Origin: an uncultured Actinomycetota bacterium
Lineage (GTDB): Bacteria; Actinomycetota; Humimicrobiia; Humimicrobiales; Humimicrobiaceae
Direction of reading: 5' to 3'
DNA: 28,227 nt
Assembly: GCA_964414685.1 (NCBI GenBank)
Contig: CAYPXQ010000030.1
Span: 1-28,227 of the forward strand
A program made the translations under genes and the position numbers. Positions 2 through 19,288 of this stretch are shown one piece after another. The notes beneath the pieces are model-generated. The model was given only the letters and a program-made list of their open reading frames with translations. It was not told the DNA's origin and did no database searches. Each line of letters starts with the position of its first letter. The stretch's first letter is position 1.

Positions 2-109
2 GCTTTTCATACTGGCTGCCAATTATTTATTACTAATGATATTGCTTTAAAGAAGATCAAAACTGACCTGCTCCAGATAATCATACTGGATGATTATCTC
101 GTATCTTAA
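2..109 (+). CDS. C-terminal fragment of a PIN-domain (VapC-like) protein, truncated by the window edge
   Basis: Not in the ORF track. Manual translation gives AFHTGCQLFITNDIALKKIKTDLLQIIILDDYLVS*. The 'GC..FITND..L' and 'I.ILDD' tail resembles PIN-domain C-termini. Confidence 0.6.
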   Translation, partial: AFHTGCQLFITNDIALKKIKTDLLQIIILDDYLVS

Positions 110-211
110 TTGTGGATCTACATGACTAGCGGCAAATAATCTAGTTCAGGTTAAGGCCAGCATTCATAAAATAAGTGACCAGAATATCCAAGAATTTAAC
201 AGTAAATAACC

Positions 212-1291
212 TTATCTCTTAACCCTGGCATTACCCTCCCAGATGCTCCAGATCTGCTCTTCGGCTACAGGATTTGAATAGTCGGTAAGAAGGGTAGCTA
301 CAAAAGCACCATTGGCCCAGCCGAACTTTATCCATTTTTCCGGCTCCCAGCCCTTAAGTATCCCATAGAGCATGCCGCCCACAAAACCATCGCCTCCACC
401 TATGCGGTCCAGTACTTCTATTGGTCTTGGCTCTATTACATGCCAGTTTTTTCCTTCTGCCATAATGGCTCCCCAGAGATGGCTGTTGGCACTTATTACC
501 TGTCTTAGCGTGGTCGCAAAGACTGAAGTGTCGGGATATTCCTTCTTTGTCCTTTCTATCATCTCCTTAAAACAGTCTATCTTGGCAGCAATTTTTTTCC
601 CTCCGGCTTCGGGACCTTCTATACACAGACAAAGCTGGCAGTCTTCTTCATTTCCCACCAGGATATCTGATAGTGATGCTATCTCAGAAAACTTATCATT
701 CAGCTCTTCTTCCCGGCCTTTCCAGAAGCTGGACCGGTAGTTAAGATCAAAGGATACTACGGTAGCGTATTTTTTGGCAGTTCTGGCAAGCTCGAGACAG
801 AAGTCAGTGGTCTCTTTGGATATTGCAGCTATAAGACCTGAAAGGTGTATTATGCTAACTCCTTCCTGGCCAAATATCCTGTCCAGGTCGAAGTCATCTG
901 TACTCAATGTTCTTCCCACTTCACCTGCCCTGTCATTTGCTACCCTGGGTCCGCGGACTCCATAGCCGGAATCGGCAATATTTATCTGGTGGCGATACCC
1001 CCAGGGTCCTCCCTTATCTATATCTTTTCCTTCATAATCCATATGACGGGACCTTAGGTCTGACTTGATCTTAGCTGATATAGGACTGTCCTTTACAAAA
1101 GCGGTAAGCACTTTTACCGGAAGTCCGAGACATGAGGAGACACTGGCTACATTGGTCTCGGCACTGGTGACCTGCATATTGAATATCGAGCTAGAGTGTA
1201 CCGCCTGTCTGTCTGCAGGCGTTATCCTGAGCCCCATACTGGTGGGTACAATTAGAGAATATTTACAGTCTTTTTTTATGTTTATTGTCAT
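212..1291 (-). CDS. PfkB/ribokinase-family sugar-acid kinase (KdgK-like; possibly gluconate kinase in this context)
   Basis: SAETNVA N-terminal motif, SFDLNYR, GNEED and anion hole DRIGGGDGFVGG. SD GGAGGAGG upstream of the ATG. Confidence 0.85.
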   Translation of the reverse strand: MTINIKKDCKYSLIVPTSMGLRITPADRQAVHSSSIFNMQVTSAETNVASVSSCLGLPVKVLTAFVKDSPISAKIKSDLRSRHMDYEGKDIDKGGPWGYRHQINIADSGYGVRGPRVANDRAGEVGRTLSTDDFDLDRIFGQEGVSIIHLSGLIAAISKETTDFCLELARTAKKYATVVSFDLNYRSSFWKGREEELNDKFSEIASLSDILVGNEEDCQLCLCIEGPEAGGKKIAAKIDCFKEMIERTKKEYPDTSVFATTLRQVISANSHLWGAIMAEGKNWHVIEPRPIEVLDRIGGGDGFVGGMLYGILKGWEPEKWIKFGWANGAFVATLLTDYSNPVAEEQIWSIWEGNARVKR

Positions 1292-1318
1292 AAAACCTCC
1301 TCCATTAGAAACTGGTTA

Positions 1319-2584
1319 TCATTTTTTTAATTCATAAAGATATTTTCCGCCCTCTTCTATCCAGAGCTTTCCCGGACTATTAAAGTCATTTTTTATAATA
1401 GTGGAAGGATTCCTGTAACCCAGACCAACTTTTTTACATTTATCCTCAGGTATTGAAGTAGCCAGAGTGACCTTAAAAGCCAGGTCTTCCTTTCTGGTCT
1501 CAGGGTCAAATATACCCGGACCGCATACATTGATAAGGTGAGAAGCAGCATTTCTTGAAATATTAGCAGCATTTTTCATAAGACTGCATATATGATCCCG
1601 GCAATGATACCCTAAAGAAAAGAGGTCTTCTTCTATATCAGGGTTGGTATGGAAACACTTTATATGGGGGGCATATATTATTACTTCAGCGCCTTTTTTT
1701 AATACTCCCGGCTTCTGAAGCTTGTATGAACCTTTGCCAGCAAGCCATATTTCATCATAGTTGGAAGGGATTTCCTGAACTACCTGGGAGAGAGGGCTTT
1801 CCAGATATTTTATATGGACCTTTGACGAAGCCCCTGCTGCCTTTCTATAGGCACTTATAAATCCATCATAATCTTTATCTATATAAAGGCCCGTAGGTAC
1901 CGCTCCTGATCTTGATTCTATATTTACCATATTATATGAATATATGGGGCATTTAATATTAGAAAAAATAGCCCTTGCTCCAGCATTTATAATATCCCTT
2001 CCATTATTATCCACAGTCCCCAATATCTTTGGTATTCCTACAAGCACCGCCGCCCAGTGGAAAGCATCTATGACTTCGGGTCCCGATATCCCGGGAAAGA
2101 ATATCTTCAACCCCCCTGAATATCCTGCTGCCTCATGAGGAACAGTTCCTGAAAGGGCAATAATCAAATCATAATCAGAAAAAATAAGCTTATTAACAGT
2201 TATTTTTATTTCTGAGGCAAGCATTCCTTCGGTTTTTTCTTTTACCAGACAGCTATCTATCTTACCTGTGGTTGCAAGGCAGGAGGGGTCTGAGAATGAG
2301 TGATTTAAAAATTTTATATTCCTGAAAGGGACAAGATCCAGCTTTTTTACAAACTCTTCTTGCATCATAGGTCTGTGAGTGCCGCCGGCATTTAGAAAAT
2401 CTATTCTGGAATCCTGATATCTTTCTGCTATAGAAGGAGCTATCATATGGGAAAAGTCAATCCTGGTATAGTCGGGAAATAGCACCAAGATCTTTTTTGC
2501 AGGGGGCAGGTCTTTGAGGCTTTCCCTTATAAACCGGGAAAGCCTTTGATCCTCTATAATCGCCTTACCGTCTAAATATTTCAT
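1319..2584 (-). CDS. LarA-family (lactate racemase domain, DUF2088) nickel-pincer hydroxy-acid racemase/epimerase; putative mannonate/gluconate 2-epimerase
   Basis: Motifs PDYTR, GGTHRPM, NH, VPHEAAGYSGGLKIFFPG, FHW and WLAGK match LarA active-site and NPN-anchoring positions. ATG directly abuts the gnd stop (TAGATG). Confidence 0.85.
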   Translation of the reverse strand: MKYLDGKAIIEDQRLSRFIRESLKDLPPAKKILVLFPDYTRIDFSHMIAPSIAERYQDSRIDFLNAGGTHRPMMQEEFVKKLDLVPFRNIKFLNHSFSDPSCLATTGKIDSCLVKEKTEGMLASEIKITVNKLIFSDYDLIIALSGTVPHEAAGYSGGLKIFFPGISGPEVIDAFHWAAVLVGIPKILGTVDNNGRDIINAGARAIFSNIKCPIYSYNMVNIESRSGAVPTGLYIDKDYDGFISAYRKAAGASSKVHIKYLESPLSQVVQEIPSNYDEIWLAGKGSYKLQKPGVLKKGAEVIIYAPHIKCFHTNPDIEEDLFSLGYHCRDHICSLMKNAANISRNAASHLINVCGPGIFDPETRKEDLAFKVTLATSIPEDKCKKVGLGYRNPSTIIKNDFNSPGKLWIEEGGKYLYELKK

Positions 2585-4066
2585 CTATAGCTTTTTTTCC
2601 GGTCTATTATCTTCCATCCATTCGGTATGATATTCCTGATAGGAACCATCTTCCTTTAGTCCTATTTTTAGACTGCCCTCTTCAAGCTTGAAATAACCAT
2701 GAGCTCCAAAAAAGTCTCTTTGCTGTGCTGCTACCTGTGCTGATACCATAACTGATGAAGCTAGCTGAAGTATATAATCATAAGAACAGCTCATAGCCAG
2801 TGTCGGTACCCCCACATTATGTGCTACTTCTATGAAAACCTTCAGGCTGGAAAGATTCTTATTTATAAACTCTCTAAATGAGGGAGCCGCAATAAGATTA
2901 GATAGATCCTTGTTTCTGGCATATTCTTCTGTTATCCGTGATAGGAATCCTGCCCGTATTATGCATCCTCCCCTCCAGCCAGCAGAAATGGTGCCCATGT
3001 CTAATTCCCAGCCGTATTTTCTTGATGCTGCTCCCATCAAGGCAAAACCCTGGGCATATGATGATATTTTGGCAATATACAATGCGTCATGAGCTACTTT
3101 TATAAATTTATCAGGGTTCTCACTGAAGCTTTCCTGAATTACTTTTAGCTTTTCCGATACCGATAATCTTATATTCTTGTCCTGGCTCATCTCCCTTGAG
3201 AAAACCGCCGAGGCTATAGTGGGTATGGGGACCAGAAGTTCAAGGGCTGATGCTACTGTCCAGGTGCCTGTCCCTTTCATGCGGGTGATATCTGCTGTGA
3301 CATCTACCAGATATCTATCTGAGGATTTTTCTTTTTCCTTCATACCCTGACCGGTTATCTCTATAAGGTAGGAGGACAGGATACCTGAAGGATCGTTCCA
3401 TTGTGTCATTATTTCTGAGATCTTTGCTGCATCATATCCCAGAGCCGATTTTAAAGCCCATGCGGTCTCTCCTATTAGCTGCATATCACCATATTCTATG
3501 CCATTGTGCACCATCTTTACGAAATGGCCGGCTCCATCTTCACCAATATGGCATACACATGGTTGGCCGTCTTGGGCTTTGGCTGATATTCTCTCAAATA
3601 TGTCTTTTACCATGGCGTATGCTGCCTTTGTGCCTCCCGGCATAATAGCAGGGCCCAAAAGCGCTCCTTCTTCTCCTCCGGATATCCCTGTACCTATATA
3701 AAGTATGCCCTTTTCTTTAAGGTATTTTTCCCTTCTTATAGTATCCGTATAAAGTGAATTGCCTCCGTCTATTATGAGGTCTCCAGATGAGAGTAAAGGT
3801 ATTAGTTCTTTTATATTGTCATCTACTGGTTTTCCTGCCTTTACCATAAGCATTATCTTGCGAGGTCTTTTAAGAGAATCTACGAGTTCTTTAAAGGTGT
3901 AGGCAGCTTTTATATTTTTGCCTTTTGCTTTGCCGCTGATGAACTCTTTGGTACGCTCGCCTGTCCTGTTATATACTGCTGCTGAATATCCTTTGGACTC
4001 TATATTCAGGACTAGATTCTGCCCCATTACTGCAAGACCGATAAGTCCTATGTCATACTGCTGCAT
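2585..4066 (-). CDS. gnd: 6-phosphogluconate dehydrogenase, decarboxylating (NADP-type)
   Basis: IGLIGLAVMGQNL, YNRT, KMVHNGIEYGDMQL, KGTG, WRGGCIIRA, QRDFFGAH. Confidence 0.97.
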   Translation of the reverse strand: MQQYDIGLIGLAVMGQNLVLNIESKGYSAAVYNRTGERTKEFISGKAKGKNIKAAYTFKELVDSLKRPRKIMLMVKAGKPVDDNIKELIPLLSSGDLIIDGGNSLYTDTIRREKYLKEKGILYIGTGISGGEEGALLGPAIMPGGTKAAYAMVKDIFERISAKAQDGQPCVCHIGEDGAGHFVKMVHNGIEYGDMQLIGETAWALKSALGYDAAKISEIMTQWNDPSGILSSYLIEITGQGMKEKEKSSDRYLVDVTADITRMKGTGTWTVASALELLVPIPTIASAVFSREMSQDKNIRLSVSEKLKVIQESFSENPDKFIKVAHDALYIAKISSYAQGFALMGAASRKYGWELDMGTISAGWRGGCIIRAGFLSRITEEYARNKDLSNLIAAPSFREFINKNLSSLKVFIEVAHNVGVPTLAMSCSYDYILQLASSVMVSAQVAAQQRDFFGAHGYFKLEEGSLKIGLKEDGSYQEYHTEWMEDNRPEKKL

Positions 4067-4087
4067 ATGTATCTCCTTAAACTAGAT

Positions 4088-4912
4088 TTATATTCCCGAA
4101 AATGCTGAAAATCCCCCGTCTATGGGGATTATTGTGCCGGATACAAAGGCTGAAGCATCGGATGCCAGCCAGATCACTGCTCCTGCCAGGTCCTCCGCTT
4201 TCCCAAAACGGGCCATTGGGGTATGGGATATTATAGCCTTACCCCTTTCGGTAAACTTCTCGTCTTTATCAAAAAGAAGGAAGTGGTTCTGCCGAGTTAA
4301 AAAAAATCCCGGAGCTATGGCATTTACCCTCAAGTTCCTGTTATACTCCTGGGCAAAATGTACCGCCAGCCACTGCGTAAAGTTGGATACAGCAGCCTTG
4401 GCCGCTGAATAGCCTGGTATCCTGGTAAGGGGGCGGAAAGCATTCATGGAAGATATGTTTATTATGGATCCCCCTTCTTTGTTACCTGCCATAGTCTTAC
4501 CGAATACCTGGGCTGGAAGAATGGCTCCCCCGAATAGATTTAGGGAAATAACCTTTTCTAAGGCACTGAGGGGAAGGTCAAAAAATGAGAGCTCTTCTGA
4601 TGTGGTAGCAGCTTTTTGGTTTCCTCCGGCAGCACTTACCAGTATATCTATTTTGCCCATATCAGAAAGTACAGCGTCATGGCACTTTTCTATCTCTTCC
4701 TTTTTGAGGACATTTATATAGTAGCCTGCTGCATCTATTCCGCTACCTTTAAGACCCGCTATCAACTCTTCGCTGTCAACGATATCGCATATAGCCACTC
4801 TGGCACCAGCTTTGCCCAGGATAAGCGATATTTCCCGGCCCAGGACACCGGCTCCGCCAGTTACAATAGCTGTTTTTCCAGTTAGGTCAAATATCTCCAG
4901 ATAATCATTCAT
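4088..4912 (-). CDS. uxuB: SDR-family D-mannonate oxidoreductase / fructuronate reductase
   Basis: TGGAGVLG, NISSMNAFRPLTRIPGYSAAK, RVNAIAPGFFL, HTPMARFG; directly downstream of uxaE. Start moved from 4927 to the ATG at 4912, which has AAGGA 6 nt upstream. Confidence 0.85.
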   Translation of the reverse strand: MNDYLEIFDLTGKTAIVTGGAGVLGREISLILGKAGARVAICDIVDSEELIAGLKGSGIDAAGYYINVLKKEEIEKCHDAVLSDMGKIDILVSAAGGNQKAATTSEELSFFDLPLSALEKVISLNLFGGAILPAQVFGKTMAGNKEGGSIINISSMNAFRPLTRIPGYSAAKAAVSNFTQWLAVHFAQEYNRNLRVNAIAPGFFLTRQNHFLLFDKDEKFTERGKAIISHTPMARFGKAEDLAGAVIWLASDASAFVSGTIIPIDGGFSAFSGI

Positions 4913-4923
4913 AATTTGTCCTT

Positions 4924-6408
4924 TCATGCAAGCAGTTCCAGATGTTTTTTGATATTATCTTCTACATACTTGTAGTGCAGTTCTTCATTTTTAAACAATA
5001 CATCCAGAAGCCTCTTTTTAAGCTCTGTATAGGTCAGAATAGTTCCAAATGTCACATGGAGCATCTGCCTTGATTCATGTATATCGAGATAATTTTTAAG
5101 TTTTTTGTCATCAGTCTTTCCAATATCTGATAGTTTCGATGTATCTGTAGTAAGGTGATACGAATCCCTGTCTTTTTCAAAGCTTTCAAGACTTATTGTG
5201 TAGATCTTCCGGAATAGATCAGGGTCAAGCTCTGAAATAACTCTTATGGCTTCAAGGTAACTGGTTCCGGCCGTCTTTATATGAAATTTTCCCTCACAGA
5301 TTCTGGCAAACACAGGGTAAGTCGATAGCTTCTCACTGCCGGAATGAAGTGAAAGTTTATAGCCACCAAATATTTCTAATATTTTTGCATGTTCGCTTAA
5401 TTGGTTTTCTAAATCATTTAAATCACCTTTAAAATCTATAGCTTTTTCCCATTTTCCAGGAAAACGCAGAGCAAGATTATTGAATCTAACTCCAAGTCTC
5501 ATAAGCTCGCTACTGATAAAATAATGTTCCAGTGGTGTTACTTCCGTTTCTGTTTCATCCATAGATACTTCGAAATCAAAAGGCCTATTTGTATAGCTAT
5601 TAAGAAAACTATGAAGTTCCGCTACATTATTTATAGATCTTTCATATTTCACAGCCATGACGGCAAGAATATCCTTATCAATTAGATACTTCTTTTTCCC
5701 CAGATTAATTATTTTACCAAGATATGTTTTTTCAATTAGAGTCCTGTCATCAATATGGTTGTATAGACTTTTTATCTTCTCATTTGATAAATTTTGTATA
5801 CACATAACATTATCCGAAGGATCCACTGTAAACATATTAAACCCTGCATCTACAGCATCTTTTAGATCTTCTTTATTCTTTACATGATCAGCATCAGCTC
5901 CAAATCCCTGATCTGAGCCAGATTCAAAATAGCCCCATAAGCCAGTGGCCATAACATCACACCAATTTTTCCCAGTTCTATTAAGCTCCCTTGCAGATTG
6001 CTGGATAAGTACAGGAAAAATGTCTACATCGCTGAATGCTTTTATATGGGCAGCCGTGACCATACCAAGCCTGTCTCCGGTTCCGAAAGATGCTCTTTTA
6101 TTACAGACCACAGGCCCAGCATCCGTAAAAAAATCTCTGAGAATTTTTAAATTCATATATGTTAATGGACATATTTTAATAATATTTCTTTTTTTCCCTA
6201 TTTGAACATTGTCTATAACTTTACCCTCAAATTGTTCTAAATCCTTGAAATCTTCTATAACAAAAAGAAGTTTTTCATAAGAACTTTTACCGATTAAAAA
6301 AGCTTTATTTTTTTTTACCCTCAAAGAATTTAAATAAAATGAGTATTTAAGACCATTGATCTTTTGAATTATTCCTAAAATGCTGTTTTTATCCAATTTA
6401 ATATCCAA
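4924..6408 (-). CDS. uxaE: Tagaturonate/fructuronate epimerase
   Basis: SFGTGDRLG, QQSAREL.RTG, GADADH, FEVSMDET, LSLHSGS, HIKTAGTSYLEA, RQMLHVTFG. TTG start. Confidence 0.92.
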   Translation of the reverse strand: MDIKLDKNSILGIIQKINGLKYSFYLNSLRVKKNKAFLIGKSSYEKLLFVIEDFKDLEQFEGKVIDNVQIGKKRNIIKICPLTYMNLKILRDFFTDAGPVVCNKRASFGTGDRLGMVTAAHIKAFSDVDIFPVLIQQSARELNRTGKNWCDVMATGLWGYFESGSDQGFGADADHVKNKEDLKDAVDAGFNMFTVDPSDNVMCIQNLSNEKIKSLYNHIDDRTLIEKTYLGKIINLGKKKYLIDKDILAVMAVKYERSINNVAELHSFLNSYTNRPFDFEVSMDETETEVTPLEHYFISSELMRLGVRFNNLALRFPGKWEKAIDFKGDLNDLENQLSEHAKILEIFGGYKLSLHSGSEKLSTYPVFARICEGKFHIKTAGTSYLEAIRVISELDPDLFRKIYTISLESFEKDRDSYHLTTDTSKLSDIGKTDDKKLKNYLDIHESRQMLHVTFGTILTYTELKKRLLDVLFKNEELHYKYVEDNIKKHLELLA

Positions 6409-6469
6409 CCAGTTTATATTTTAATTTGAAGCTTATTGAATTCTGCTGCAGATAAAATTAATTATTGTT

Positions 6470-7495
6470 TTAGCCCCTTATATCTGCCACCGATTCTCTA
6501 ATAATCATCCTGGACTTTAGCCTTATTTTTTTATAATTCCTCTCAGAGGGGTTATCGATTCTTTTGAGGATCAGGTCGCAGGCATTCTTTGCAGCTTTAT
6601 ATAATGGTAACTTAGCAGTTGTCAGTCTAGGCACGCAAACGTTTGTAATGGGCATTCCGTCAAAACCGATAATTGATATATCGCCCGGGATCTTTAATCC
6701 TTCATCAAGAGCTCCCCTGATTGCGCCAATAGCAATTATGTCATTAAGGGCAACTATCGCTGTAAGGTCTCTTTTTCTTTTGATCAATTCTTTAGCTGCG
6801 TATGCTCCCGCCCTATAATCAAAATTACCTGCCCTTATTATTAATTCTTCATTATAAATCTTGTATTTTTTTAGTGCATCTATGTATCCATTTCTTTGAT
6901 CAACGCTATGGGAATGATCCAGCGGCCTATCGATATAGCCGATATTTTTATGGCCCCTATTAATCAGATAATTTGTAATCTCATTTGATCCAGAATAATA
7001 ATCAAATAATACCGAATCTACTTCAAAACCAGCTATTTCCCTATCCAGGAACAACAAGGGCACATTCAAGCTTTTTATTTCAGAAAAAGGCTCCGGTTCT
7101 CTTTCTATGGGTATGATAATGATCCCATCTACTTTTTTGGTTAATAATGTTTTTATAGCATCTAATTCTACCTGTAAAATATTAGAAGTATTAACAATTA
7201 TTAAATTATATTTTTTCAGGAACAATATTCTTTGAATATTTTCGGTCAGTTTTCCAAAGGTTTCATTTGATATGCTAGGGATTACCAAACCAATAGAATA
7301 TGTCCTATGACCTTTTAAACTCCTAAGCAATAAATTTGGATAGTATTTTAATTCTTTTATTGCCTGATTTACCCTATCGGTAACCTCTTCGCTAACATAC
7401 CGGGTTTTATTGATCACGTGAGAAACAGTAGCTACTGAAACTCCAGCTCTTTCTGCAACATCTTTAATTGACGTTCTTTTTTTATTCAGAATCAT
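6470..7495 (-). CDS. LacI-family transcriptional regulator (PurR/RbsR-like HTH)
   Basis: SIKDVAERAGVSVATVSHVINKTRYVS HTH, then a periplasmic-binding-type domain with IPGDISIIGFD and LTT. Confidence 0.95.
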   Translation of the reverse strand: MILNKKRTSIKDVAERAGVSVATVSHVINKTRYVSEEVTDRVNQAIKELKYYPNLLLRSLKGHRTYSIGLVIPSISNETFGKLTENIQRILFLKKYNLIIVNTSNILQVELDAIKTLLTKKVDGIIIIPIEREPEPFSEIKSLNVPLLFLDREIAGFEVDSVLFDYYSGSNEITNYLINRGHKNIGYIDRPLDHSHSVDQRNGYIDALKKYKIYNEELIIRAGNFDYRAGAYAAKELIKRKRDLTAIVALNDIIAIGAIRGALDEGLKIPGDISIIGFDGMPITNVCVPRLTTAKLPLYKAAKNACDLILKRIDNPSERNYKKIRLKSRMIIRESVADIRG

Positions 7496-7573
7496 AGTAT
7501 ATTCAGAATTATAAATTAAAAACTTAATATTTATATTTAAATATAAATTCTAATAAAAATCTTGATTTTATTT

Positions 7574-9052: not shown

Positions 9053-9092
9053 TTTGCTCCTAAAATCCTTAAAAAGTTAGATGATTCTCGGT

Positions 9093-9863
9093 TTAATATT
9101 TTAATAATGACGCTGATTCTTTATCTAAAAAGAGTTCTGCACATTTATGGGTTCTCATAATGGTGGCAGGTACTTTTTCGCTGATATCTTCGGAAAAAAC
9201 TTTCTTGATTATGTTTGCCTTATAATCTCCCGGCACAATAATTAAAGCAAATCTAGAATTAAAAAGTGTCGGAATAGTCACTGTTATAGCTTCATCTGCA
9301 ACCAGATTAACAGAATCAAAGAATCCGTCCCGTACTTGCTGCTGTCTGCAGGTCTGGTCCATTTGGACGACTTTGATCATCTCGTGGTCATTAAATTTAG
9401 CCACATGAGGATCATTAAAAGCTATATGCCCATTTTCTCCAATACCAATAAATGCAATATCAAGAGGATATTTTTTTAGAAGATCTGAATATCTTTTCAT
9501 TTCAGCATGAACATCAGCATTTCCGTCAATATAAAATATATTTTTAAAATCCCATTTGCTGAATATTCTTTCATTTAAATATTTCCCAAATTTTTGCGGA
9601 TACTCATTGCCGACCCCAATATATTCATCCATATGAAAAGCATTTACTTTTTTCCAGTCTATACCATCCATTTTACTTAATGCATCCAGGAAATCATCTT
9701 GCGAATGCCCGGCAGCGAACATTATGTTCGCTTCATCTTTCTCGGATAATATTTTACCTATTAGTTCTTTTGCTTTGGCTGATGCTGCTTCGCCCATAGC
9801 TTTGCTTGTTTTAAAAACTTTCACCTGTAAATCATCCTTTTTGAACTCTGCCAACATATCCAT
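9093..9863 (-). CDS. Glucosamine-6-phosphate deaminase/isomerase (NagB) family protein, atypical subtype
   Basis: FHMDEY, GIGENGHIAFND, Q..DG.F, AITVTIPTL, PATI.RTH. AAGHSQ replaces the PTGGTP loop of E. coli NagB. Confidence 0.85.
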   Translation of the reverse strand: MDMLAEFKKDDLQVKVFKTSKAMGEAASAKAKELIGKILSEKDEANIMFAAGHSQDDFLDALSKMDGIDWKKVNAFHMDEYIGVGNEYPQKFGKYLNERIFSKWDFKNIFYIDGNADVHAEMKRYSDLLKKYPLDIAFIGIGENGHIAFNDPHVAKFNDHEMIKVVQMDQTCRQQQVRDGFFDSVNLVADEAITVTIPTLFNSRFALIIVPGDYKANIIKKVFSEDISEKVPATIMRTHKCAELFLDKESASLLKY

Positions 9864-9914
9864 ATTTCCAATCCCTTCTAAATTAATCTATGTTTATAAT
9901 AATGGTTTTTTAAA

Positions 9915-11765
9915 TTAATTGACCCAGATCGGACTTGACCAGGCCAGGCTATCGTCCTCTTGTTCGGCCCTAATATAATAATATGCTTCCTTTTCTTCTG
10001 GATCTTCAAGAAAACTGCAAGTAAAACTTTGGTCTTCCGCTTTAAAATTTTTATGGATTTCTCCATTTTTTATTAAATAAATATTGTTTAATTTTTTTGT
10101 TCCAATGACACTTATAAAGAACTCTAAACATTCTTCATCTTTTATAGTGATCTCACTACCCATAAGATTCCCATTAATTTGAAAATCCAAGATTATTCTT
10201 TCGCCCATAGTCCCGTAAACTCTTCTCTGGTAAATAGCATCCCATATATCTTCCCGTGTAAGATTTTCGGCAAATACTGCTATTAATCCTCCTTTATATC
10301 CTTTATAACCTCTCATCCACCAATTATTGCCAGGATGCCCCTCATGAGAATCGCTAGATGCAATTATTCCCAGTCTATAGCCTCTATTTAGAGCATCTAT
10401 TATTGTCTTTCCATTTTCATATTCAGAAGCAGCCTTTAATTTATGTTTGCAATGGGGAGACTCTGAATTTCCCCAGGTTGAATAAATCTCTGCAATTCTT
10501 ATAAGATCCTGATCAAAATAATCCCAATTAGTCCCAAATAATTTGCTGGTAGTATGGTGAGGTATCACTAATACATCCTTATCTTTTAATAATCTGAATA
10601 ATTTTTCGGGAGTATTACTTTCTTTATCTTTGCACCTGTAAAGCGGCCCGTCATCTTCACGATAATATATATTCTTGTCTCCTCCAAGTATCTCTTCGTT
10701 ATATTCATAGGCAAGCAATGTTACGAACCTGCCAGGTTCATAGTATCTTTTAACACATTCTTTTGTGTGGACCCATTCATCATCGGATAGCAAAGTTTCA
10801 GTAGCATCATGAGGCGTTGCCGCACAAAAATCTAAATTAGACATATTTCTGCCGTATTCCAGATATTCTTCTAAAGTGCCAAGTCCATCATCTAATAAAC
10901 AGTGCCCGTGTATATCACCCCAATATATATTGTATTTATTATTGATTTTTGTTTTCAATATTGGGTTGCTGGCTCCAATATTGTTAGTTGATCTGTCTAT
11001 TATTTCTATTACGGAATAATTTTCCTTTGAAAGAATATTTATATTGTAGTCTGGTTTCTTTTCTACACATAGATTTCCATCTCTATTTTTAATGCTTATT
11101 TCAAATTTTGTTTCTTTTATATAATTATTATAAAAATCTTTTGAAATTATATTCGCTCTCCCGGGATCATTATTAGATATAACCGAATTTGAACTAATTT
11201 CTATTTTATGAACTTTATCGGGTAAAATTTTTAATTTGGGAGGGTCATCCACCAAAAAAAACCCGCTATAGGGTGCCTCTGACCTTCCATTAGAATCCAC
11301 AGAAACAGCAAATTCAACTTGTTGCGTAAATTCTTGTGTCCTCGCTCCTGGCGAGCCAAATCCCCTTTCTCCATATATAAATGTTATAATATCATTTTTT
11401 ATTAATTCACCCTTATCTATATATACAAAAAAACTTAAACCCCATGTCTCTACATAAGCTTCTTCATAGTCGTTATCCGCAACTATGCTAGTCATATCAG
11501 ATTTATCTATTTTATTGTAGTCGGTATGAAAACAGACATCTTTGTTTGAACATCTAACGGTCATAAAACCTTCATCTTTTGGGTTTTGAGTTTGGGGCAT
11601 AGAAAAACGTAAAGGAATATTTATCCTAATGATCCCTCCGGGTTTTATTGTTATATCTCCAATACGATAAATTATTTTCCATGTACCATAAGTAGCCGCG
11701 ATTGCAGGCTCGCATGGGACTATTTCTGCTGTCCCCAATCCTTTTTTAAACTGTTCCCTTCTCAT
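9915..11765 (-). CDS. PHP-fold metallohydrolase (DUF3604 / CehA-McbA-like) with a large N-terminal domain
   Basis: WGDIHGH, PHD, LAYEY, IPHH, EIYSTWG, IASSDSHEGHPG, GGLIAVFAENLTREDIWDAIYQRRVYGT, YYYIR.EQ.D...AWSSPIW. No signal peptide seen. Confidence 0.8.
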   Translation of the reverse strand: MRREQFKKGLGTAEIVPCEPAIAATYGTWKIIYRIGDITIKPGGIIRINIPLRFSMPQTQNPKDEGFMTVRCSNKDVCFHTDYNKIDKSDMTSIVADNDYEEAYVETWGLSFFVYIDKGELIKNDIITFIYGERGFGSPGARTQEFTQQVEFAVSVDSNGRSEAPYSGFFLVDDPPKLKILPDKVHKIEISSNSVISNNDPGRANIISKDFYNNYIKETKFEISIKNRDGNLCVEKKPDYNINILSKENYSVIEIIDRSTNNIGASNPILKTKINNKYNIYWGDIHGHCLLDDGLGTLEEYLEYGRNMSNLDFCAATPHDATETLLSDDEWVHTKECVKRYYEPGRFVTLLAYEYNEEILGGDKNIYYREDDGPLYRCKDKESNTPEKLFRLLKDKDVLVIPHHTTSKLFGTNWDYFDQDLIRIAEIYSTWGNSESPHCKHKLKAASEYENGKTIIDALNRGYRLGIIASSDSHEGHPGNNWWMRGYKGYKGGLIAVFAENLTREDIWDAIYQRRVYGTMGERIILDFQINGNLMGSEITIKDEECLEFFISVIGTKKLNNIYLIKNGEIHKNFKAEDQSFTCSFLEDPEEKEAYYYIRAEQEDDSLAWSSPIWVN

Positions 11766-11784
11766 AATATAACCCTTAAATTAA

Positions 11785-12606
11785 TTATTTTATTGCTCCG
11801 CTGGTCAAGCCTTTTACAAAATACTTTTGTCCAAATAGATACAGGATTATCATTGGTAAACCCACAAAAAATGCTCCAGTCATTATAAAGGTGGGATAAA
11901 TTGAATATTTTCCTATAAACATTGCCAGTTCAACTACTATTGTCCTCTTGGCATTATCCTGCAATAATAATAGCGCAATTAAAAGTTCGTTCCATACCCA
12001 TAAGCCATTCACTATAAATAAAGAAATTATTGAGGGTCTGGACAGGGGGACAATTATTTTTAACAGAATCATAAAACTGCTGCAGCCATCGATTCTCGCT
12101 GCTTCTAATATTTCATTTTCTATAGTAATGAAAAAGCTGGTCAAAATAAAAATTGAAATAGGAAGCATGAAGCCGGCGTAAACCAGGCTTGCTCCTAAAT
12201 AACTATTTATCAGACCTATTTTTGACAATAAAGAGTATAAGGGTATTATGACAACTATTGCTGGCATGGCAGTAAAAGCAATAGTTATATTAAATAAAGC
12301 ATCTCTTCCCCTGAATTTCATTTTAGCATATGCATAAGATGCAAATATTGAAATAAGTATGGCTATAATCGTTGATGAAAAAGTTAAAATCAATGTATTG
12401 ATCATAGGGCGGTAGATCTCCCTATCGATGATCAAAATTTTAAAATTTTCCAAAGTTGGTTCTATAGGTATGCCATAATTGTTATCATAATACTCTGTTT
12501 CGCTTTTAAAAGCCGATACTCCCATAAAATAGATCGGAACAAGCGCGCTTAATGAGAATAATATTAAAACTATGTGTAGTGGAACTTTTCTTAAAAATTT
12601 TAACAT
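11785..12606 (-). CDS. Carbohydrate ABC transporter permease (MalG/UgpE-like)
   Basis: About six hydrophobic segments; EAA loop EILEAARIDGCS; AYAYAKMKFRGR. Confidence 0.93.
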   Translation of the reverse strand: MLKFLRKVPLHIVLILFSLSALVPIYFMGVSAFKSETEYYDNNYGIPIEPTLENFKILIIDREIYRPMINTLILTFSSTIIAILISIFASYAYAKMKFRGRDALFNITIAFTAMPAIVVIIPLYSLLSKIGLINSYLGASLVYAGFMLPISIFILTSFFITIENEILEAARIDGCSSFMILLKIIVPLSRPSIISLFIVNGLWVWNELLIALLLLQDNAKRTIVVELAMFIGKYSIYPTFIMTGAFFVGLPMIILYLFGQKYFVKGLTSGAIK

Positions 12607-13478
12607 TATTCTTCCATTTCTTTTCTTAAATAATGCTGAAGAAAGATAAAGATCATTATTCCGAATAGCAGCAGCACTGATAACGCTGAAGCAATCCCCC
12701 GTAGATTTTTCAGGAATGCAAAACTATAGATCTCGAGTTCAATCACTGTAGTTTTATTTGCCGGCCCTCCGCCCGTAAGAACATAAACATAGGCAAAGAT
12801 CCATGCAAAATTTATCATTATTTTATATACAACAAAAAAACTGATTAAGCCTTTTAGTTGAGGGGTAGTTATATAGATCAACCTTTGAAGCCAATTAGCC
12901 CCATCAACCTTAGAGGCATCAATAATTGATTCGTCCAGGGATGCCAGCCTGGCTGAAAACAATAAAATCCCGAACCCTAATTCTTTCCATACAATTATTA
13001 AAATTATTGTATAAATGGCAATATTTGCATCTCCAAGCCAATCCAAGGCTAAAAAATCAAGGTTTAATGTCTTAAATATGTTGTTAACAAGGCCATTGGT
13101 CCTTAATAAATAGCTAAATATTAATCCTACAACAACAATAGATAACACTTTTGGAATAAAAATTATTGTTTGGTATATTTTGCCTCCACGAACACCTTCA
13201 TAGAAGATAACAGCAAAAAATATAGATAAAACTAATAATACCGGTATAGATAATAATAGTTTTAGATTATTGAATAATGCAGTTCTTGCCCCGATGTCTC
13301 TGGTCAATAAGTATAAATAATTCTCAAATTTTACAAAAATAACTTCTCCGCCAGAAAACCTGTAAAAACTATCCCTGATCATTCTAATGATCGGATAGAA
13401 ATACACTAATCCCAATAGTGCAACTGAAGCTGATATAAATAAATAAGGTTGTAAGATTCTAGTTTTTCTCATATACAA
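12606..13478 (-). CDS. Carbohydrate ABC transporter permease (MalF/UgpA-like)
   Basis: Hydrophobic segments; EAA-like loop SIIDASKVDGANWLQR; VYVLTGGGP. TAATG overlap with the next permease. Confidence 0.93.
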   Translation of the reverse strand: MYMRKTRILQPYLFISASVALLGLVYFYPIIRMIRDSFYRFSGGEVIFVKFENYLYLLTRDIGARTALFNNLKLLLSIPVLLVLSIFFAVIFYEGVRGGKIYQTIIFIPKVLSIVVVGLIFSYLLRTNGLVNNIFKTLNLDFLALDWLGDANIAIYTIILIIVWKELGFGILLFSARLASLDESIIDASKVDGANWLQRLIYITTPQLKGLISFFVVYKIMINFAWIFAYVYVLTGGGPANKTTVIELEIYSFAFLKNLRGIASALSVLLLFGIMIFIFLQHYLRKEMEE

Positions 13479-13500
13479 GTTTAAAATATAACAAATTTTG

Positions 13501-13530
13501 CCGGGGCTCTTTTTTCATAAAGAGCCCCGG
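13501..13530 (-). terminator. Perfect 12-bp stem-loop between the SBP and first permease (mRNA-stabilising hairpin or partial terminator)
   Basis: CCGGGGCTCTTT-tttcat-AAAGAGCCCCGG. No immediate U-run on the minus strand (followed by CAAAAUUUG). Confidence 0.7.
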
Positions 13531-13549
13531 GTTAATGAAAACAATTATA

Positions 13550-14995
13550 TTATTCAGAAGCCCATATATCATATTTTTCAAAGGCTTCCGGATTCAGCTC
13601 TTGCCAATTTGCGGCAGCATCGTCAACCATTTGTACTGCTTCTGCTGGTTCAATATCGCCAGAAATGACTGATTGTCCGGCTGGCAATATTCCATCACCA
13701 AGTATTGCATATGGCAGTACAGCATCTGCATACCAAATACCGTTTTGAAATCCACCGATTATTTTTTCGAATACTTCTTTTCTTTGCGGATTATCAATAA
13801 TATCAATATCAAACCTGTCATCAGCAGGTATAGTGACCCCATTTAATACTTCAACCATTGCATTCATCCTTTCCTGGCTATGCAGGAACATCAGGAAGTC
13901 TGCAGCTAGCTCTTTATTAGGAGACCACTCTGTTATAAATAATGACATTGGCACACACGGTATCCAATCAACAGCGTTTCCAGTTTCTTCAATGGTGGGA
14001 ATAGGCATTATGCCCATCTTCTCCGAGCCCAGTTCTTCCAGCCAGCCAAATGCTTTCATGCTGGGTGTGAAACCGAAAGTTGCATTTCCGCTCCTCCATT
14101 CATTCAAAGCTTCTGGAGGCACAATTGACGTGGCATTCTCAATCAAATAGTCATTACTATTAAACTGATCTATAATGGTGAATAATTCATCGAAGCCTAC
14201 ATCTCCAAAACTTTTGTTGCCGGCAGCAGCAACTATTGTTTCCTTTGAATTACCTATTTGATTGACGATATGTCCAGAAAATATGGATGTCATCCAGCCT
14301 GGAGATTTAAATCCCATTGCAAAAGGAGAAATTCCAACGCTTTTTAGTGCTTCGCATACTTCAATCAATTCAGTCCAATTCCCAGGAGGGTCTTCAGGGT
14401 CTAGTCCAGCTTCTACAAAATGTTCTTTATTGTAAACCCATACACTTCCATAACCATATAGATCTGAAGCCCAGACTTTACCATCATAGGTTGATAAGCT
14501 TTTACCTGTCCAATGCTCCATCTCTTCTTCAGGAATATAATCATTTAATGGTACTACATTGCCAGCCCAAACTTCCTCTAATTGATAAACGCCATACCAG
14601 ATTGTGGCAATATCTGGACCTTCTTGCGCTTCGGCCGCGGCCTTAAATGCTGGAATCGTGTTTGATGTATCCTGCAAGACTTGTTCTATTTCTACATTTG
14701 GATATAACTCTTCATAAGCTTCTATAGAATCTATTATATAATTCTCTAATCCAGGGACATCAGTTTCTCCCCACCACCATAGAGTCAATTTTACAGGTTC
14801 TTCTGTAACAGTTTCTTCGACTTCTTCTGAAACTTCTGCTTCTTCTTCCATATTTTCCTCATCTTCCGATACATCTGTAGAGGATTCTTCCACTGTGGCA
14901 TTTTCTTCAGCGCATCCTGCTCCTATGAGCGAGAAACTAATAACAAATATCAGACACATTATTAGTATAATAGCTCTTTTCATGTTTATAACCAT
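13550..14995 (-). CDS. CUT1 ABC transporter substrate-binding lipoprotein
   Basis: Hydrophobic signal with lipobox-like GAGC, acidic Glu-rich linker, LTLWWWGE, GPDI, YNKEHFVEAGLDPEDPPGNWTEL. Start could be the ATG at 14983. Confidence 0.93.
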   Translation of the reverse strand: MVINMKRAIILIMCLIFVISFSLIGAGCAEENATVEESSTDVSEDEENMEEEAEVSEEVEETVTEEPVKLTLWWWGETDVPGLENYIIDSIEAYEELYPNVEIEQVLQDTSNTIPAFKAAAEAQEGPDIATIWYGVYQLEEVWAGNVVPLNDYIPEEEMEHWTGKSLSTYDGKVWASDLYGYGSVWVYNKEHFVEAGLDPEDPPGNWTELIEVCEALKSVGISPFAMGFKSPGWMTSIFSGHIVNQIGNSKETIVAAAGNKSFGDVGFDELFTIIDQFNSNDYLIENATSIVPPEALNEWRSGNATFGFTPSMKAFGWLEELGSEKMGIMPIPTIEETGNAVDWIPCVPMSLFITEWSPNKELAADFLMFLHSQERMNAMVEVLNGVTIPADDRFDIDIIDNPQRKEVFEKIIGGFQNGIWYADAVLPYAILGDGILPAGQSVISGDIEPAEAVQMVDDAAANWQELNPEAFEKYDIWASE

Positions 14996-15105
14996 TCCTT
15001 TCGCTTTGCTTAAGGTATAAATGGATTAAAACCTTTTTCCTTAAGACTTTTTTATGACTATATGCATCTACTGCAGCAAGGCGGATGTGATGCTGCTTAC
15101 CTTTT

Positions 15106-15164
15106 AGCATTATATGTGCCGATTATGTGCCAGAAAAACACATACTGGATAAACCGCTTATCCA
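15106..15164 (-). promoter_or_regulatory. Candidate promoter/operator region of the ABC operon
   Basis: Minus strand: TATAAT at 15114-15109; direct repeats GGCACATA with 11-bp period; inverted repeat TGGATAA-gcggt-TTATCCA (15146-15164) containing a LacI-type AANCGNTT core. Confidence 0.45.
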
Positions 15165-15326
15165 CCTTTAACATCGATCTTTTAAAACTATACAACTGGC
15201 TTTTATCAAACCCTTACTTTGCAAATTTATAATAAGCCATTGAGTAAACATTTAGTTTTTAGAGATCTTCGTCAGCATGGTTTTCTTTACCATACCCAAT
15301 TCTGGAATTTTCTAGTTTTCTAAATT

Positions 15327-15455
15327 TTATTTTTTTCCAGGCTTTCCTCCTTTTTTTAAGGATTGGTATGCATTAAAATAATCTTGAGATTTGTTTAAAT
15401 TAATTGCTTCTAGGCACATCAATGGCAATAGTTTAACAAATCTCTTTTTTACCAT
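15327..15455 (-). CDS. Unannotated 42-aa small ORF or gene remnant
   Basis: AGGGAGGT SD 3 nt before ATG; MVKKRFVKLLPLMCLEAINLNKSQDYFNAYQSLKKGGKPGKK*. Below the ORF-track cutoff. Confidence 0.35.
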   Translation of the reverse strand: MVKKRFVKLLPLMCLEAINLNKSQDYFNAYQSLKKGGKPGKK

Positions 15456-15531
15456 ATTACCTCCCTTCAAATATCAATTATTTTATTAATTAATAATATC
15501 TTCAATATGTCCAGTACGATTCAACAATTAG

Positions 15532-16995
15532 TTACCCTGAATTCCATTTATTTTTTAGCTCAATAAATTTTTTATCATATTCGTCCATTATGCCATCCAG
15601 CGCTTCTTGGGTATCGTCAGCAAGCGGAACTGCAAAGTGGTTTTTTATTATATTGATAATATCTTCTTTTGCCCGCTTTTTTATAGATTGAAAAATTTGC
15701 TTTCCACTAACTAATCCCTGTCTGGAAGAAAGGTACGGCTTCCAAACCTCGCTGTTTCTCATATATTTTATGGTATGGTCGTGCATAATTATGTTTGCCC
15801 CATTGACCATATCTTTAATAGAATTAAAAGCTAGGTGATCTTCATCCATATCTATCCCATTTAATATTCTCCTTATTGCACCAAAGCGTTCATTATCCAA
15901 TGCCATTGTTTCGAATGAGGTTAAAGTTACATTAGCTAAGCCGCCCAGACCTCCCAGAAGACTAGGATTTGCGCTTCCAATCAGTAATGAATTAATAGAT
16001 TTTTCATCTGAAGCCTGTTCATCTAATATTGCAGAGCTTGTGTGTCCATGTCCCCAGGAAGGCATTCCAAGGTAATTCGCCAGCTTTACAGCAAGACTCC
16101 GCATCAATCCTGTTTCAGGTCCCCCTGTGGTTGAGGTAAGTGTTTGCAGATCAGCCACAGAAGGTGTATTCAGACTAATGATTGGCAATTGTTTATTGAT
16201 AGTATGGGCCATAACTGCAATTGCTAGCTCCTCTGCATGGCCTAAAGAAACAGCCCCAGCAATTGTATAGGGAGCTGTTGAGCCCATTATGGGGTTAGTA
16301 AGGGCTATTATGGGCAACCCCGACCGAGCAATTGTTATTAATGCATCAACCAGGTCGAATGGAAAATATAAAGGAGAAATAGCGGCTATAAATGGAGCAC
16401 AGGTAGGATTCTGTGACAGGTCATTTTTAGCGTTATTCCCCAATAATGAAGCAATTTTTACAACAGCTTCTGCTTCCCGCTTATTACATACTCCAGGTCC
16501 CAATAAAGGTTTTGTGGTATTCTTTACAGTATAGATGAAATCTGTCAATGTATTCATATGAGGTTCTACATCTGTGGCATCAAGTAAAGAAACATATACT
16601 ATATCAATCTCATTTAATGCATCCAGTATTCTTGTAGATACTTCAATATCGCTTCTCAGTGTCCTTCTGACCAATCCAGTTTCAAAGTCAACAATATTGG
16701 GTAAAATACCGGTATTGGTAAACAATGTAGATCCATTTGATTCAATATCTGCCATTTTTCCGTTACGGCCATGTAATGTGACTGAGTTGGGAATATCTCT
16801 AATTGTATTAGCCACCAGATCTGGCTGAATATAAACTCTATTATCCTTGATCTTGCATCCATTTTCTGAAAGCTTTCCCCTTATTTGAGGATGTTCGATC
16901 CGCACACCAAGCTCGGATAAAATGGATAGGGAATTCTCATGTATTTTTTTTAGCTGTTTTTCTTCTATCTTGTTTAATCCTATTGAATTAATCAT
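15532..16995 (-). CDS. Trimethylamine methyltransferase (MttB) superfamily protein, non-pyrrolysine
   Basis: IHENSLSILSELG, ISPLYF, GSTAPYTIAG, TTGGPETGL, QASDEK, SFETMALDNE, HDHT.KYMR. Confidence 0.9.
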   Translation of the reverse strand: MINSIGLNKIEEKQLKKIHENSLSILSELGVRIEHPQIRGKLSENGCKIKDNRVYIQPDLVANTIRDIPNSVTLHGRNGKMADIESNGSTLFTNTGILPNIVDFETGLVRRTLRSDIEVSTRILDALNEIDIVYVSLLDATDVEPHMNTLTDFIYTVKNTTKPLLGPGVCNKREAEAVVKIASLLGNNAKNDLSQNPTCAPFIAAISPLYFPFDLVDALITIARSGLPIIALTNPIMGSTAPYTIAGAVSLGHAEELAIAVMAHTINKQLPIISLNTPSVADLQTLTSTTGGPETGLMRSLAVKLANYLGMPSWGHGHTSSAILDEQASDEKSINSLLIGSANPSLLGGLGGLANVTLTSFETMALDNERFGAIRRILNGIDMDEDHLAFNSIKDMVNGANIIMHDHTIKYMRNSEVWKPYLSSRQGLVSGKQIFQSIKKRAKEDIINIIKNHFAVPLADDTQEALDGIMDEYDKKFIELKNKWNSG

Positions 16996-17040
16996 AATTT
17001 TTAGCTCTTTATGGCATCGGTAGTTTATATATAGTCTATA

Positions 17041-17097
17041 GTTAATTAATTACGTAAATATTTAACTAATAATATAGAATTTATTCTTCATTGTCAA
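17041..17097 (-). promoter_or_regulatory. Sigma70-type promoter with a palindrome over the start site, driving the mttB-like gene
   Basis: TTGACA (17097-17092), 17 nt, TATTAT (17074-17069), then a 26-bp imperfect palindrome GTTAATTAATTACGTAAATATTTAAC (17041-17066; 11 of 13 pairs symmetric). Confidence 0.7.
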
Positions 17098-18405: not shown

Positions 18406-18411
18406 TAAGAT

Positions 18412-19272: not shown

Positions 19273-19288
19273 AATATTATCCTTTAGA

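Follow-up and report, generated by a model that had tools for sequence, protein, structure and literature searches.

A strain-variable genomic island in an uncultured Actinomycetota bacterium encodes a candidate pathway joining MttB-type proteins to sugar-acid catabolism

Introduction

Thousands of homologues of MttB that do not use pyrrolysine (Pyl) are labelled as trimethylamine methyltransferases, and the handful that have been assigned all belong to betaine-type amines. In one of these non-Pyl enzymes, MtgB, glycine betaine is contacted by an aromatic pair and a basic pair of residues (Y97, F356, R312 and H348; PMC13080624). The UxaR-regulated galacturonate route of Thermotoga maritima is encoded by gnd-uxaE-uxaD-gntE-gntK (Rodionova et al. 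2012; PMC3750489), and its GntE is a LarA homologue that epimerises D-mannonate to D-gluconate (PMC7583248). Here we analyse a 28,227-bp stretch of DNA, hereafter the window, from an uncultured Actinomycetota bacterium of the Humimicrobiaceae (assembly GCA_964414685.1, contig CAYPXQ010000030.1, positions 1 to 28,227). It contains a genomic island in which two mttB-like genes lie together with genes for an ABC importer, a DUF3604 protein, a NagB-like protein, a LacI-family regulator and a hexuronate route.

With a probability of about one half, we read this island as a cassette gained by horizontal transfer for the catabolism of a methylated sugar or sugar-acid, probably one that bears an amine. 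A sequence-only reading of the same DNA had proposed an undescribed pathway joining MttB-type demethylation to amino-sugar/hexuronate catabolism. The recurrence of the genes in independent contigs and phyla supports an undescribed pathway that would join MttB-type proteins to catabolism of this type. Its new part is a conserved core; the distal hexuronate route is already known.

Results

Thirteen genes form a strain-variable genomic island

Thirteen co-directional, full-length open reading frames (ORFs) occupy positions 212-16995 on the minus strand (Table 1). Profile searches with Pfam and NCBIfam against curated cut-offs bore out the gene order and all identities given by the sequence-only reading. 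Intergenic distances range from an overlap to 78 bp, with the exception of 536 bp between mttB-1 and the gene of the substrate-binding protein (SBP).

The island is missing from a genome of the same genus (G002), in which sequence matching window positions 12-99 joins that from 17192 onward through 42 bp, at 93-96% identity (contig C52). The island-less joint between positions 99 and 17192 was also found at a depth of 18-24 in three aquatic/freshwater-sediment metagenomes (X1-X3), beside island contigs at a depth of about 6-8. Since both forms coexist in metagenomes, the 13-gene cluster is a genuine, polymorphic accessory element; it did not arise by chimeric assembly. The G002 comparison and the metagenome contigs together delimit one gain/loss unit with sharp ends, and because an indel between the window and a close relative comprises these 13 genes and no others, their arrangement is more than fortuitous. 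Presence/absence polymorphism, sharp ends and deviant base composition mark the element as a genomic island; window annotation and RNA scans revealed no integrase, tRNA or flanking repeat at it.

The GC content at third codon positions (GC3) is 0.26-0.31 from mttB-1 through uxaE, 0.34-0.46 in the SDR gene, gnd, larA and pfkB, and 0.50-0.58 in the backbone. Consistently, the proteins of these four distal genes are 74-82% identical to those of a module in another genome of the genus (G006), and UxaE just 56%. Judged from composition and identity, the island is a composite with its break at the uxaE/SDR border. As the composition break lies there and not between mttB-2 and lacI, lacI and uxaE were acquired along with the MttB genes. 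Neither a set of 40 relatives nor 400 sampled genomes of the same phylum yielded a close orthologue of MttB-2.

Table 1 Features of the genomic island (window coordinates).
Feature	Position	Strand	Description
Genomic island	100..17191	.	17,092 bp, strain-variable; content exactly the 13 genes
PfkB sugar-acid kinase	212..1291	-	putative gluconate kinase, by position only
LarA-family protein	1319..2584	-	GntE-like putative mannonate/gluconate 2-epimerase; Lar_N
6-phosphogluconate dehydrogenase (gnd)	2585..4066	-	593 bits, cut-off 413
SDR D-mannonate/fructuronate oxidoreductase	4088..4927	-	NF006132, 346 bits, cut-off 281
UxaE tagaturonate/fructuronate epimerase	4924..6408	-	520 bits; low GC3 like the MttB part
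LacI-family regulator	6470..7495	-	core member; orthologues 52-57% in all four other clusters
MttB-2, non-Pyl MttB superfamily	7574..9052	-	MTTB profile, 239 bits
NagB-like deaminase/isomerase	9093..9863	-	Glucosamine_iso; nagB 127 bits, cut-off 237
DUF3604 protein	9915..11765	-	N-terminal beta-sandwich domains and PHP-type metallohydrolase; CehA/McbA 79.6 bits, cut-off 80
ABC permease 2	11785..12606	-	BPD_transp_1; 42% to L129
ABC permease 1	12606..13478	-	BPD_transp_1; 39% to L129, 41% to L065
GC-rich stem-loop	13479..13549	-	strong; between SBP and permease genes; typical intra-operon hairpin
CUT1-type SBP lipoprotein	13550..14995	-	SBP_bac_1; lipoprotein signal
Hairpin leader and ribosome-binding-site cassette	14993..15070	-	genus-typical; directly upstream of SBP start
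Perfect 6+5+6 palindrome GGATAAGCGGTTTATCC	15147..15163	.	candidate LacI-type operator upstream of SBP gene
Small ORF, 42 codons	15327..15455	-	in the 536-bp spacer; strong ribosome-binding site GAAGGGAGG
MttB-1, non-Pyl MttB superfamily	15532..16995	-	MTTB profile, 214 bits; closest solved relative MtgB
Sigma-70-like promoter match TTGACA-17-TATTAT	17069..17097	-	best-scoring site; about 75 bp upstream of mttB-1; consensus match only

A conserved core recurs on independent contigs

A core of MttB-1, MttB-2, the LacI regulator and the importer is present in five clusters, the window and four independent metagenome contigs, at 43-65% identity (identities here are relative to the window protein). 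The NagB-like gene is present in four of the five, and the top homologues of MttB-1 occur on the same contigs as those of MttB-2. Contig L129 (22,965 bp, GC 35%, in at least four samples) encodes RepA_N, MttB-1 (64%), an MFS protein, NagB-like (48%), MttB-2 (63%), an SBP (28%), two permeases (39% and 42%), AFOR, a MoaD-like protein and LacI (57%). The order on L133 (GC 34%) is UxaE (37%), MFS, NagB-like (43%), MttB-2 (65%), AKR, AFOR, an unknown gene, MttB-1 (62%), another unknown gene, Fe-ADH and LacI (53%). L164 (GC 52%) carries an ABC system, NagB-like (47%), LacI (52%), a transaldolase-like gene, MttB-1 (53%), MttB-2 (46%), a corrinoid protein and then a PotD-like ABC system, and L163 (GC 54%) an ABC system, LacI (52%), a transaldolase-like gene, AFOR, MttB-1 (54%), a split MttB-2, a corrinoid protein and an MMSDH-type aldehyde dehydrogenase. 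Across these contigs MttB-2 orthologues are 63-65% (L129, L133) or 43-46% (L163, L164) identical, and MttB-1 orthologues 53-64%. Retention of the core despite shuffled gene order and varied base composition is the signature of a functional module. In the window, L129, L133 and a further locus, L059, MttB-2 immediately follows the NagB-like gene, and on L129 the start of MttB-2 overlaps the NagB-like stop.

That the MttB genes are functionally linked to sugar and sugar-acid genes, as the sequence-only reading had claimed, is supported by the recurrence of the core on four independent contigs. A neighbourhood search of the kind it had suggested found MttB proteins again with NagB-like, UxaE-like and CUT1 ABC genes, and its refuting case, homologues that never co-occur elsewhere, gave way to four other core clusters. 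Its assumption of one pathway is supported for the link between the core and sugar genes; three of the other four core clusters lack the full uxa/gnd module. For its alternative, in which the ligand is a choline-phosphate-type conjugate and the uxa genes are mere neighbours, we found no support.

These comparisons also bear on a mosaic origin, with the island assembled from independent modules. In that case, the MttBs would act on ordinary small quaternary amines with partners in trans, the ABC system, DUF3604 protein and NagB-like protein would handle an unrelated amino sugar, and the genes from lacI and uxaE to pfkB would be a separate adjoining hexuronate operon. Such an origin fits the 536-bp spacer after mttB-1, the differing composition and genus-level ancestry of the four distal genes, the precedent of betaines in the family, and a uxa module that stands alone in G006 and another genome, G010, and is absent from L129, L163 and L164. 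However, orthologous LacI, NagB-like and both MttB proteins travel together in the five clusters in shuffled order, the NagB-like gene stays coupled to MttB-2, both MttB clades repeatedly occur with UxaE-like and LarA-like genes, the composition break places uxaE with the MttB part, and the betaine-binding residues of MtgB are absent from both MttBs (see below). We consider a mosaic unlikely, and place it second among the three alternatives weighed in this work.

On L129, the RepA_N replication-initiator gene (201-1085) lies at the contig start, and this copy, the closest to the window core, may therefore sit on a plasmid or integrative element.

MttB relatives lie beside sugar-related genes in many phyla

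A scan of species genomes, with aligned MttB-2-clade sequences as the query, gave 80 loci from Planctomycetota, Acidobacteriota, Chloroflexota, Spirochaetota, Verrucomicrobiota, Armatimonadota and Bacillota, and neighbours were counted in the 69 that were confidently anchored. The commonest were URO-D/MtaA-type genes (23), followed by CUT1 permeases (15), GFO/IDH/MocA genes (11), GH4 genes (10, every one at most three genes away), AXE/glucuronyl-esterase-like genes (6), 2-hydroxyacid dehydrogenases (6), NagB-like genes (5), sulfatases (5) and UxaE-like genes (3). The Anaerolineae (L057/58) have URO-D, MttB-2, SBP, two permeases, URO-D, NagB-like and UxaE-like genes in that order, with the UxaE-like gene beginning at the NagB-like stop. 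UxaE-like genes accompany the core or MttB relatives in L133, L057/58, L079, L151 and L158, and a LarA-like gene does so in L140. In a tree, the NagB-linked MttB-2 sequences fall into two adjacent subclades, one of which contains the window, L129 and L133. Contigs of the MttB-1 clade have MttB-2 next door in four cases (L146, L152, L141 and L068) and also carry GH4 pairs, LacI and the LarA-like (L140) and UxaE-like (L151, L158) genes.

Other MttB-2 relatives of 52-62% identity (L018, L015, L016) lie either beside GH95 fucosidase-type genes, URO-D genes and AraC regulators or, in Brocadiia, beside two Amidohydro_2 genes and a DegT-type sugar aminotransferase. An inositol or methyl-inositol substrate, brought to mind by GFO/IDH/MocA, AP_endonuc_2, MMSDH and IolC-like matches, was set aside because the evidence was too thin to rank.

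The two MttB proteins lack the betaine contacts of MtgB

Both proteins match the MttB superfamily profile (PF06253) over their full length, far above its cut-off of 25 bits, and sequence matches in the PDB to MttB and MtgB have E-values of about 1e-45. They score below the cut-off for Pyl-dependent MttB (TIGR02369; 271 and 306 bits against 525), and neither gene has an in-frame internal stop (TAG). The pyrrolysine of MttB, Pyl334 (PDB 7xcl), aligns with K330 of MttB-2 (HAGKTD) and T319 of MttB-1. An earlier reader had put the Pyl position at K344, the Lys of QAGFEK, which this alignment corrects; the Lys of QAGFEK/QASDEK is an ordinary Lys also found in MttB itself (QAGHEK). Lys330 of MttB-2 is invariant across 26 sequences.

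The MtgB contacts Y97/F356/R312/H348, transferred by hand from HMMER alignments with a numbering offset of +2, correspond to G/V/W/G in MttB-1 and A/G/G/G in MttB-2, so that neither protein has the contact residues of an MtgB-type quaternary-amine methyltransferase. Their replacement by small or different residues indicates that the two pockets are not betaine pockets and, on these alignments, neither MttB-1 nor MttB-2 looks like a betaine enzyme.

Corrinoid partners are encoded in trans

The host genome (G000) is a metagenome-assembled genome (MAG) of 1.6 Mb that is 83% complete. Outside the island it encodes five stand-alone corrinoid proteins, six URO-D/MtaA-type genes and two RACo/RamA activases, and it has a canonical methylamine-type cluster (C197:376-3942) of a corrinoid protein, MttB, a URO-D/MtaA-type gene and a second corrinoid protein. 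For a genome of this size, these genes point to a committed corrinoid methylotroph. On L163 and L164, a cognate-type corrinoid protein (MtgC/MtbC-like, 207 bits) directly follows the MttB-1/MttB-2 pair, which argues for real corrinoid chemistry. A search profile built from the five host corrinoid proteins found no corrinoid protein within 10 kb at any of the 80 MttB-2-clade loci; since the same profile detects the L163 and L164 proteins, this negative is real. Stand-alone corrinoid proteins of 210-240 amino acids (aa) are encoded in trans in all five large genomes checked that carry MttB-2-clade genes.

The 80 loci lacking a corrinoid gene would also suit MttB-fold proteins that are not methyltransferases. 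Lys330 might, for example, form a Schiff base with a NagB-derived keto sugar-acid for elimination or aldol-type chemistry. The invariance of Lys330, the NagB-like gene upstream of MttB-2 and the aldehyde-handling enzymes in L129, L133 and L163 favor such a role, which would explain the AFOR, ALDH, ADH and AKR genes. However, it accounts poorly for the corrinoid protein directly behind the MttB pair in L163 and L164, for the URO-D/MtaA-type genes beside so many loci and for the trans-encoded corrinoid proteins in every genome checked, and such chemistry is without precedent in the MttB fold. We regard it as the least probable of the three alternatives. Taking the corrinoid genes of L163 and L164, the URO-D neighbours and the trans corrinoid proteins together, we rate corrinoid-dependent methyl transfer by MttB-1 and MttB-2 with trans partners as probable.

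The distal genes resemble a known hexuronate route

UxaE, the fructuronate reductase and Gnd, which characterize the Thermotoga-type route, are all present and score above curated cut-offs. The T. maritima-like gene set implies conversion of hexuronate to mannonate, gluconate, 6-phosphogluconate and ribulose-5-phosphate. The best model for the LarA homologue is the NPN_18 hexonate epimerase (177 bits, cut-off 500), and LarC, for the nickel-pincer cofactor, is encoded in the host genome. UxaC (PF02614) was not found in this 83% complete MAG. The module of G006 has the order uxaE-SDR-gnd-larA-pfkB-uxaC and starts with a glucuronyl-esterase-like gene; in both G006 and G010, the uxa module occurs without the MttB part. 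A second gnd lies elsewhere in the host (C163:1617-3107), with DNA 75% identical to the island copy.

The NagB-like protein has a remodelled phosphate site

Orthologues of the NagB-like protein are 43-48% identical in L129, L133 and L164 and 35-41% in five Chloroflexota loci. The deaminase motifs HMDEY and GIGENGHIAFNDP and the K208 equivalent are kept, and DE[YF] and GIGENGHxAFNDP are conserved in the clade. In the eight clade members compared, A-[AST]-x-x-[SY]-Q takes the place of the TGGTP phosphate loop, the position equivalent to R172 is not conserved (R/N/K/T/G) and mostly lacks the Arg, and Gln55, Gln175/176 and Arg237 are newly invariant. With loop and Arg changed and a score below every NCBIfam cut-off, the protein falls outside the glucosamine-6-phosphate deaminases. 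The remodelled loop fits a substrate without a 6-phosphate in the usual place, and a carboxylate as its anionic group would fit the sequence. Given the coupling to MttB-2, the coupling to a UxaE-like gene in Anaerolineae and the undetected UxaC, the most economical role that we infer for the NagB-like protein is production of a keto sugar-acid taken by UxaE. A role as 6-phosphogluconolactonase partner of Gnd was rejected (nagB 127 versus pgl 63 bits; NagB-type motif).

The same site is relevant to a reading in which the cassette serves O-methylated uronic acids, such as 4-O-methyl-glucuronate from xylan or methylated galacturonate. The MttB pair and URO-D-type partners would remove the O-methyl group, and the NagB-like protein would be a UxaC-like aldose-ketose isomerase on the free uronate, not a deaminase. 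GH4, a family that includes alpha-glucuronidases and alpha-galacturonidases, is together with CE15/AXE-like esterases and CUT1 importers the commonest close neighbour of the MttB-2 clade; a glucuronyl-esterase-like gene lies next to the uxa module of G006; and both the undetected UxaC and the remodelled anionic-group site would be accounted for. On the other side, we know of no MttB-family O-demethylase, and this reading lacks such a precedent. Alkyl methyl ethers donate methyl groups poorly to Co(I), the full deaminase-type catalytic motif is retained in the NagB-like clade, and the presence in L163 and L164 of PotD-like SBPs, which are of the polyamine type, hints at a cationic amine as the ligand. 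We judge O-methylated uronic acids an improbable substrate, although we would put them first among the alternatives.

Importer, hydrolase and regulatory elements

The window SBP is 28% identical to that of L129 and 35% to that of L065, which lies beside an MttB-2 relative. No signal peptide was predicted for the DUF3604 protein, whose predicted location is cytoplasmic. An AlphaFold (AF2) model built from 42 homologues has a pLDDT of 88, and its best Foldseek matches are uncharacterised PHP phosphoesterases (3E38, 2ANU). Homologues are at most 38% identical and occur in varied glycan-type contexts without MttB. A scan of genome contigs with the protein found no relative, a PDB sequence search gave nothing useful, the ESM Atlas returned DUF3604 clusters only, and a literature search yielded no relevant paper; we know of no characterised member of the family. 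The sequence-only reading had included the hydrolase in the recurrent set, from which it drops out: none of the 80 MttB-2 loci has a DUF3604 homologue, and in other clusters AFOR, AKR or transaldolase-like genes stand in its place. The protein probably provides an accessory de-esterifying step specific to the window version.

Promoter-like sites in total were no more numerous than in shuffled sequences, and a terminator scan was likewise at background level. An Rfam scan of the window and the 536-bp spacer found no riboswitch or other RNA family. One metatranscriptome contained four small, 100%-identical contigs, over the 5' end of the DUF3604 gene, the SBP gene and the spacer (15080-15404). 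The last overlaps the 3' part of the 42-codon ORF and is the sole sizeable RNA contig on the island.

The leader before the SBP gene is one copy of a recurrent element, about 75 nt long, in which a conserved hairpin precedes GCGAAAGGAATGGTTATAAA-ATG and which abuts the start codons of unrelated genes. It occurs in at least six genomes of the genus, before genes of small membrane proteins, an SDR and an antitoxin-like gene (L165:1566-1648, L166:1573-1655, L167:541-618, L168:892-972, L169:1116-1193 and L170:1544-1620). The copies are 76-82% identical, with compensatory changes in three of 15 predicted pairs. The foreign, low-GC island bears this host-typical leader.

The remainder of the window (17260-28112) carries housekeeping genes: AAA14/DUF4143, folate genes, FtsH, Hpt, TilS, YmdB, FdhD and ThiF. 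Within it, 932 bp at 18826-19757 (the FolB part of folBK and the 3' end of folP) correspond to 101 bp in G002 (C52; L039 2048-2147), which reflects either a second indel or an assembly fault of the G002 MAG.

Discussion

The catabolic cassette that we favor would work as follows. The SBP lipoprotein and two permeases would import the methylated compound and, in the window version only, the cytoplasmic PHP-type hydrolase would strip an ester-type decoration. The two divergent non-Pyl MttB paralogues, perhaps paired, would be substrate:corrinoid methyltransferases that load methyl groups onto corrinoid proteins encoded elsewhere in the host. The NagB-like protein, coupled to MttB-2, would convert the demethylated 2-amino (or 2-hydroxy) aldose-acid to a 2-keto sugar acid, thereby substituting for the undetected UxaC. 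The keto acid could then pass through mannonate, gluconate and 6-phosphogluconate to ribulose-5-phosphate by the action of UxaE, the fructuronate reductase, the GntE-like epimerase, the PfkB kinase and Gnd. The LacI regulator is a member of the MttB/NagB core. The gene identities, the island, the recurring core and the partner genes in trans are observed; we infer that methyl transfer takes place, what the substrate is (an aminosugar or aminouronate with N-methyl groups, and N-methyl as against O-methyl), in which order the steps run and that the uxa genes are coupled to them.

Several observations weigh against it. The island itself encodes no corrinoid protein, MT2 or activase, and the 80 MttB-2-clade loci have no corrinoid gene within 10 kb. 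The core clusters without the uxa/gnd module carry AFOR, transaldolase-like, AKR, Fe-ADH or MMSDH genes instead; with other genes replacing the module in three core clusters, the downstream fate seems to differ. SBPs are just 28% identical between clusters, and the DUF3604 gene is confined to the window version. UxaC may merely be unassembled, the MAG being 83% complete. No second copy of the GGATAAGCGGTTTATCC-type operator was found in the island, in a shared-operator search that covered the window, L129 and L133. The island RNA contigs may be DNA carry-over and are weak evidence of expression. To our knowledge, characterised MttB-superfamily enzymes act only on quaternary or tertiary amines or similar small methyl donors and never on a sugar, demethylation to a primary amine would be new chemistry, and no abundant natural N-methyl aminouronate is known. 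In the library searched, we found no paper linking MttB proteins to sugars, to NagB or to URO-D with glycoside hydrolases, and none linking corrinoids to 4-O-methylglucuronate.

A more specific and doubtful proposal, which we put forward tentatively, is that MttB-1 and MttB-2 form a two-subunit, corrinoid-dependent demethylase of a methylated amino sugar or amino-uronic acid, alongside a NagB-derived deaminase. The methyl group might, for example, be removed at the N-methyl-iminium stage, the sugar carbonyl activating as pyrrolysine does for methylamines. If true, a two-subunit sugar demethylase would be the first case of a carbohydrate substrate for the MttB superfamily, and would give a function to a large clade labelled 'trimethylamine methyltransferase' in Chloroflexota, Planctomycetota, Acidobacteriota, Spirochaetota and others. 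If the clade acts on sugar-derived methyl donors, many metagenome inferences on methylamine and betaine cycling are over-counts, and a new entry of glycan methyl groups into anaerobic one-carbon metabolism would be defined. The NagB-like protein is a candidate non-orthologous replacement for UxaC. The island is compact, transferable and naturally polymorphic, and its SBP, regulator and two or three unknown enzymes make the proposal directly testable.

Compared with known systems, the window MttBs share the full-length MTTB fold and the lack of a Pyl codon with MtgB/MtgC/MtgA of Desulfitobacterium hafniense (PDB 2QNE, 9YCE) and with the MtpB, MtcB, MtyB and choline enzymes of Eubacterium limosum. 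Likewise, corrinoid proteins, MT2-type genes and activases are present in the host, although none lies inside the island. In contrast to the characterised proteins, the window MttBs are about 25-30% identical to any solved member, have Lys (MttB-2) or Thr (MttB-1) at the Pyl position, and travel as a pair of paralogues. Known betaine systems are transporter/MtgC/MtgA operons, whereas here the genes lie in putatively LacI-controlled sugar-type operons with NagB-like, UxaE, LarA, GH4 and CUT1 ABC genes.

The NagB-like protein has the same fold as NagB of B. subtilis (2BKV/2BKX) and E. coli (1CD5), with DEY, GxGxNGHxAFN[ED]P and the K208 equivalent common to both, but its gene is genetically coupled to MttB-2 or UxaE-like and not to nagA or PTS. 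The DUF3604 protein shares, by profile and predicted fold, a PHP-type catalytic domain with the phosphoesterases TM0559 (2ANU) and BVU_3505 (3E38) and with CehA/McbA; it adds an N-terminal beta-sandwich region of about 280 aa, and an MttB link is not seen for it elsewhere. With the T. maritima route, the island has in common UxaE, a fructuronate/mannonate oxidoreductase, a LarA-family epimerase, a kinase and Gnd in one run. It differs in a regulator of the LacI and not the GntR type, in a kinase of the PfkB family where T. maritima GntK belongs to the FGGY family, in the UxaC not found in the host, and in a LarA homologue that scores far below the hexonate-epimerase cut-off.

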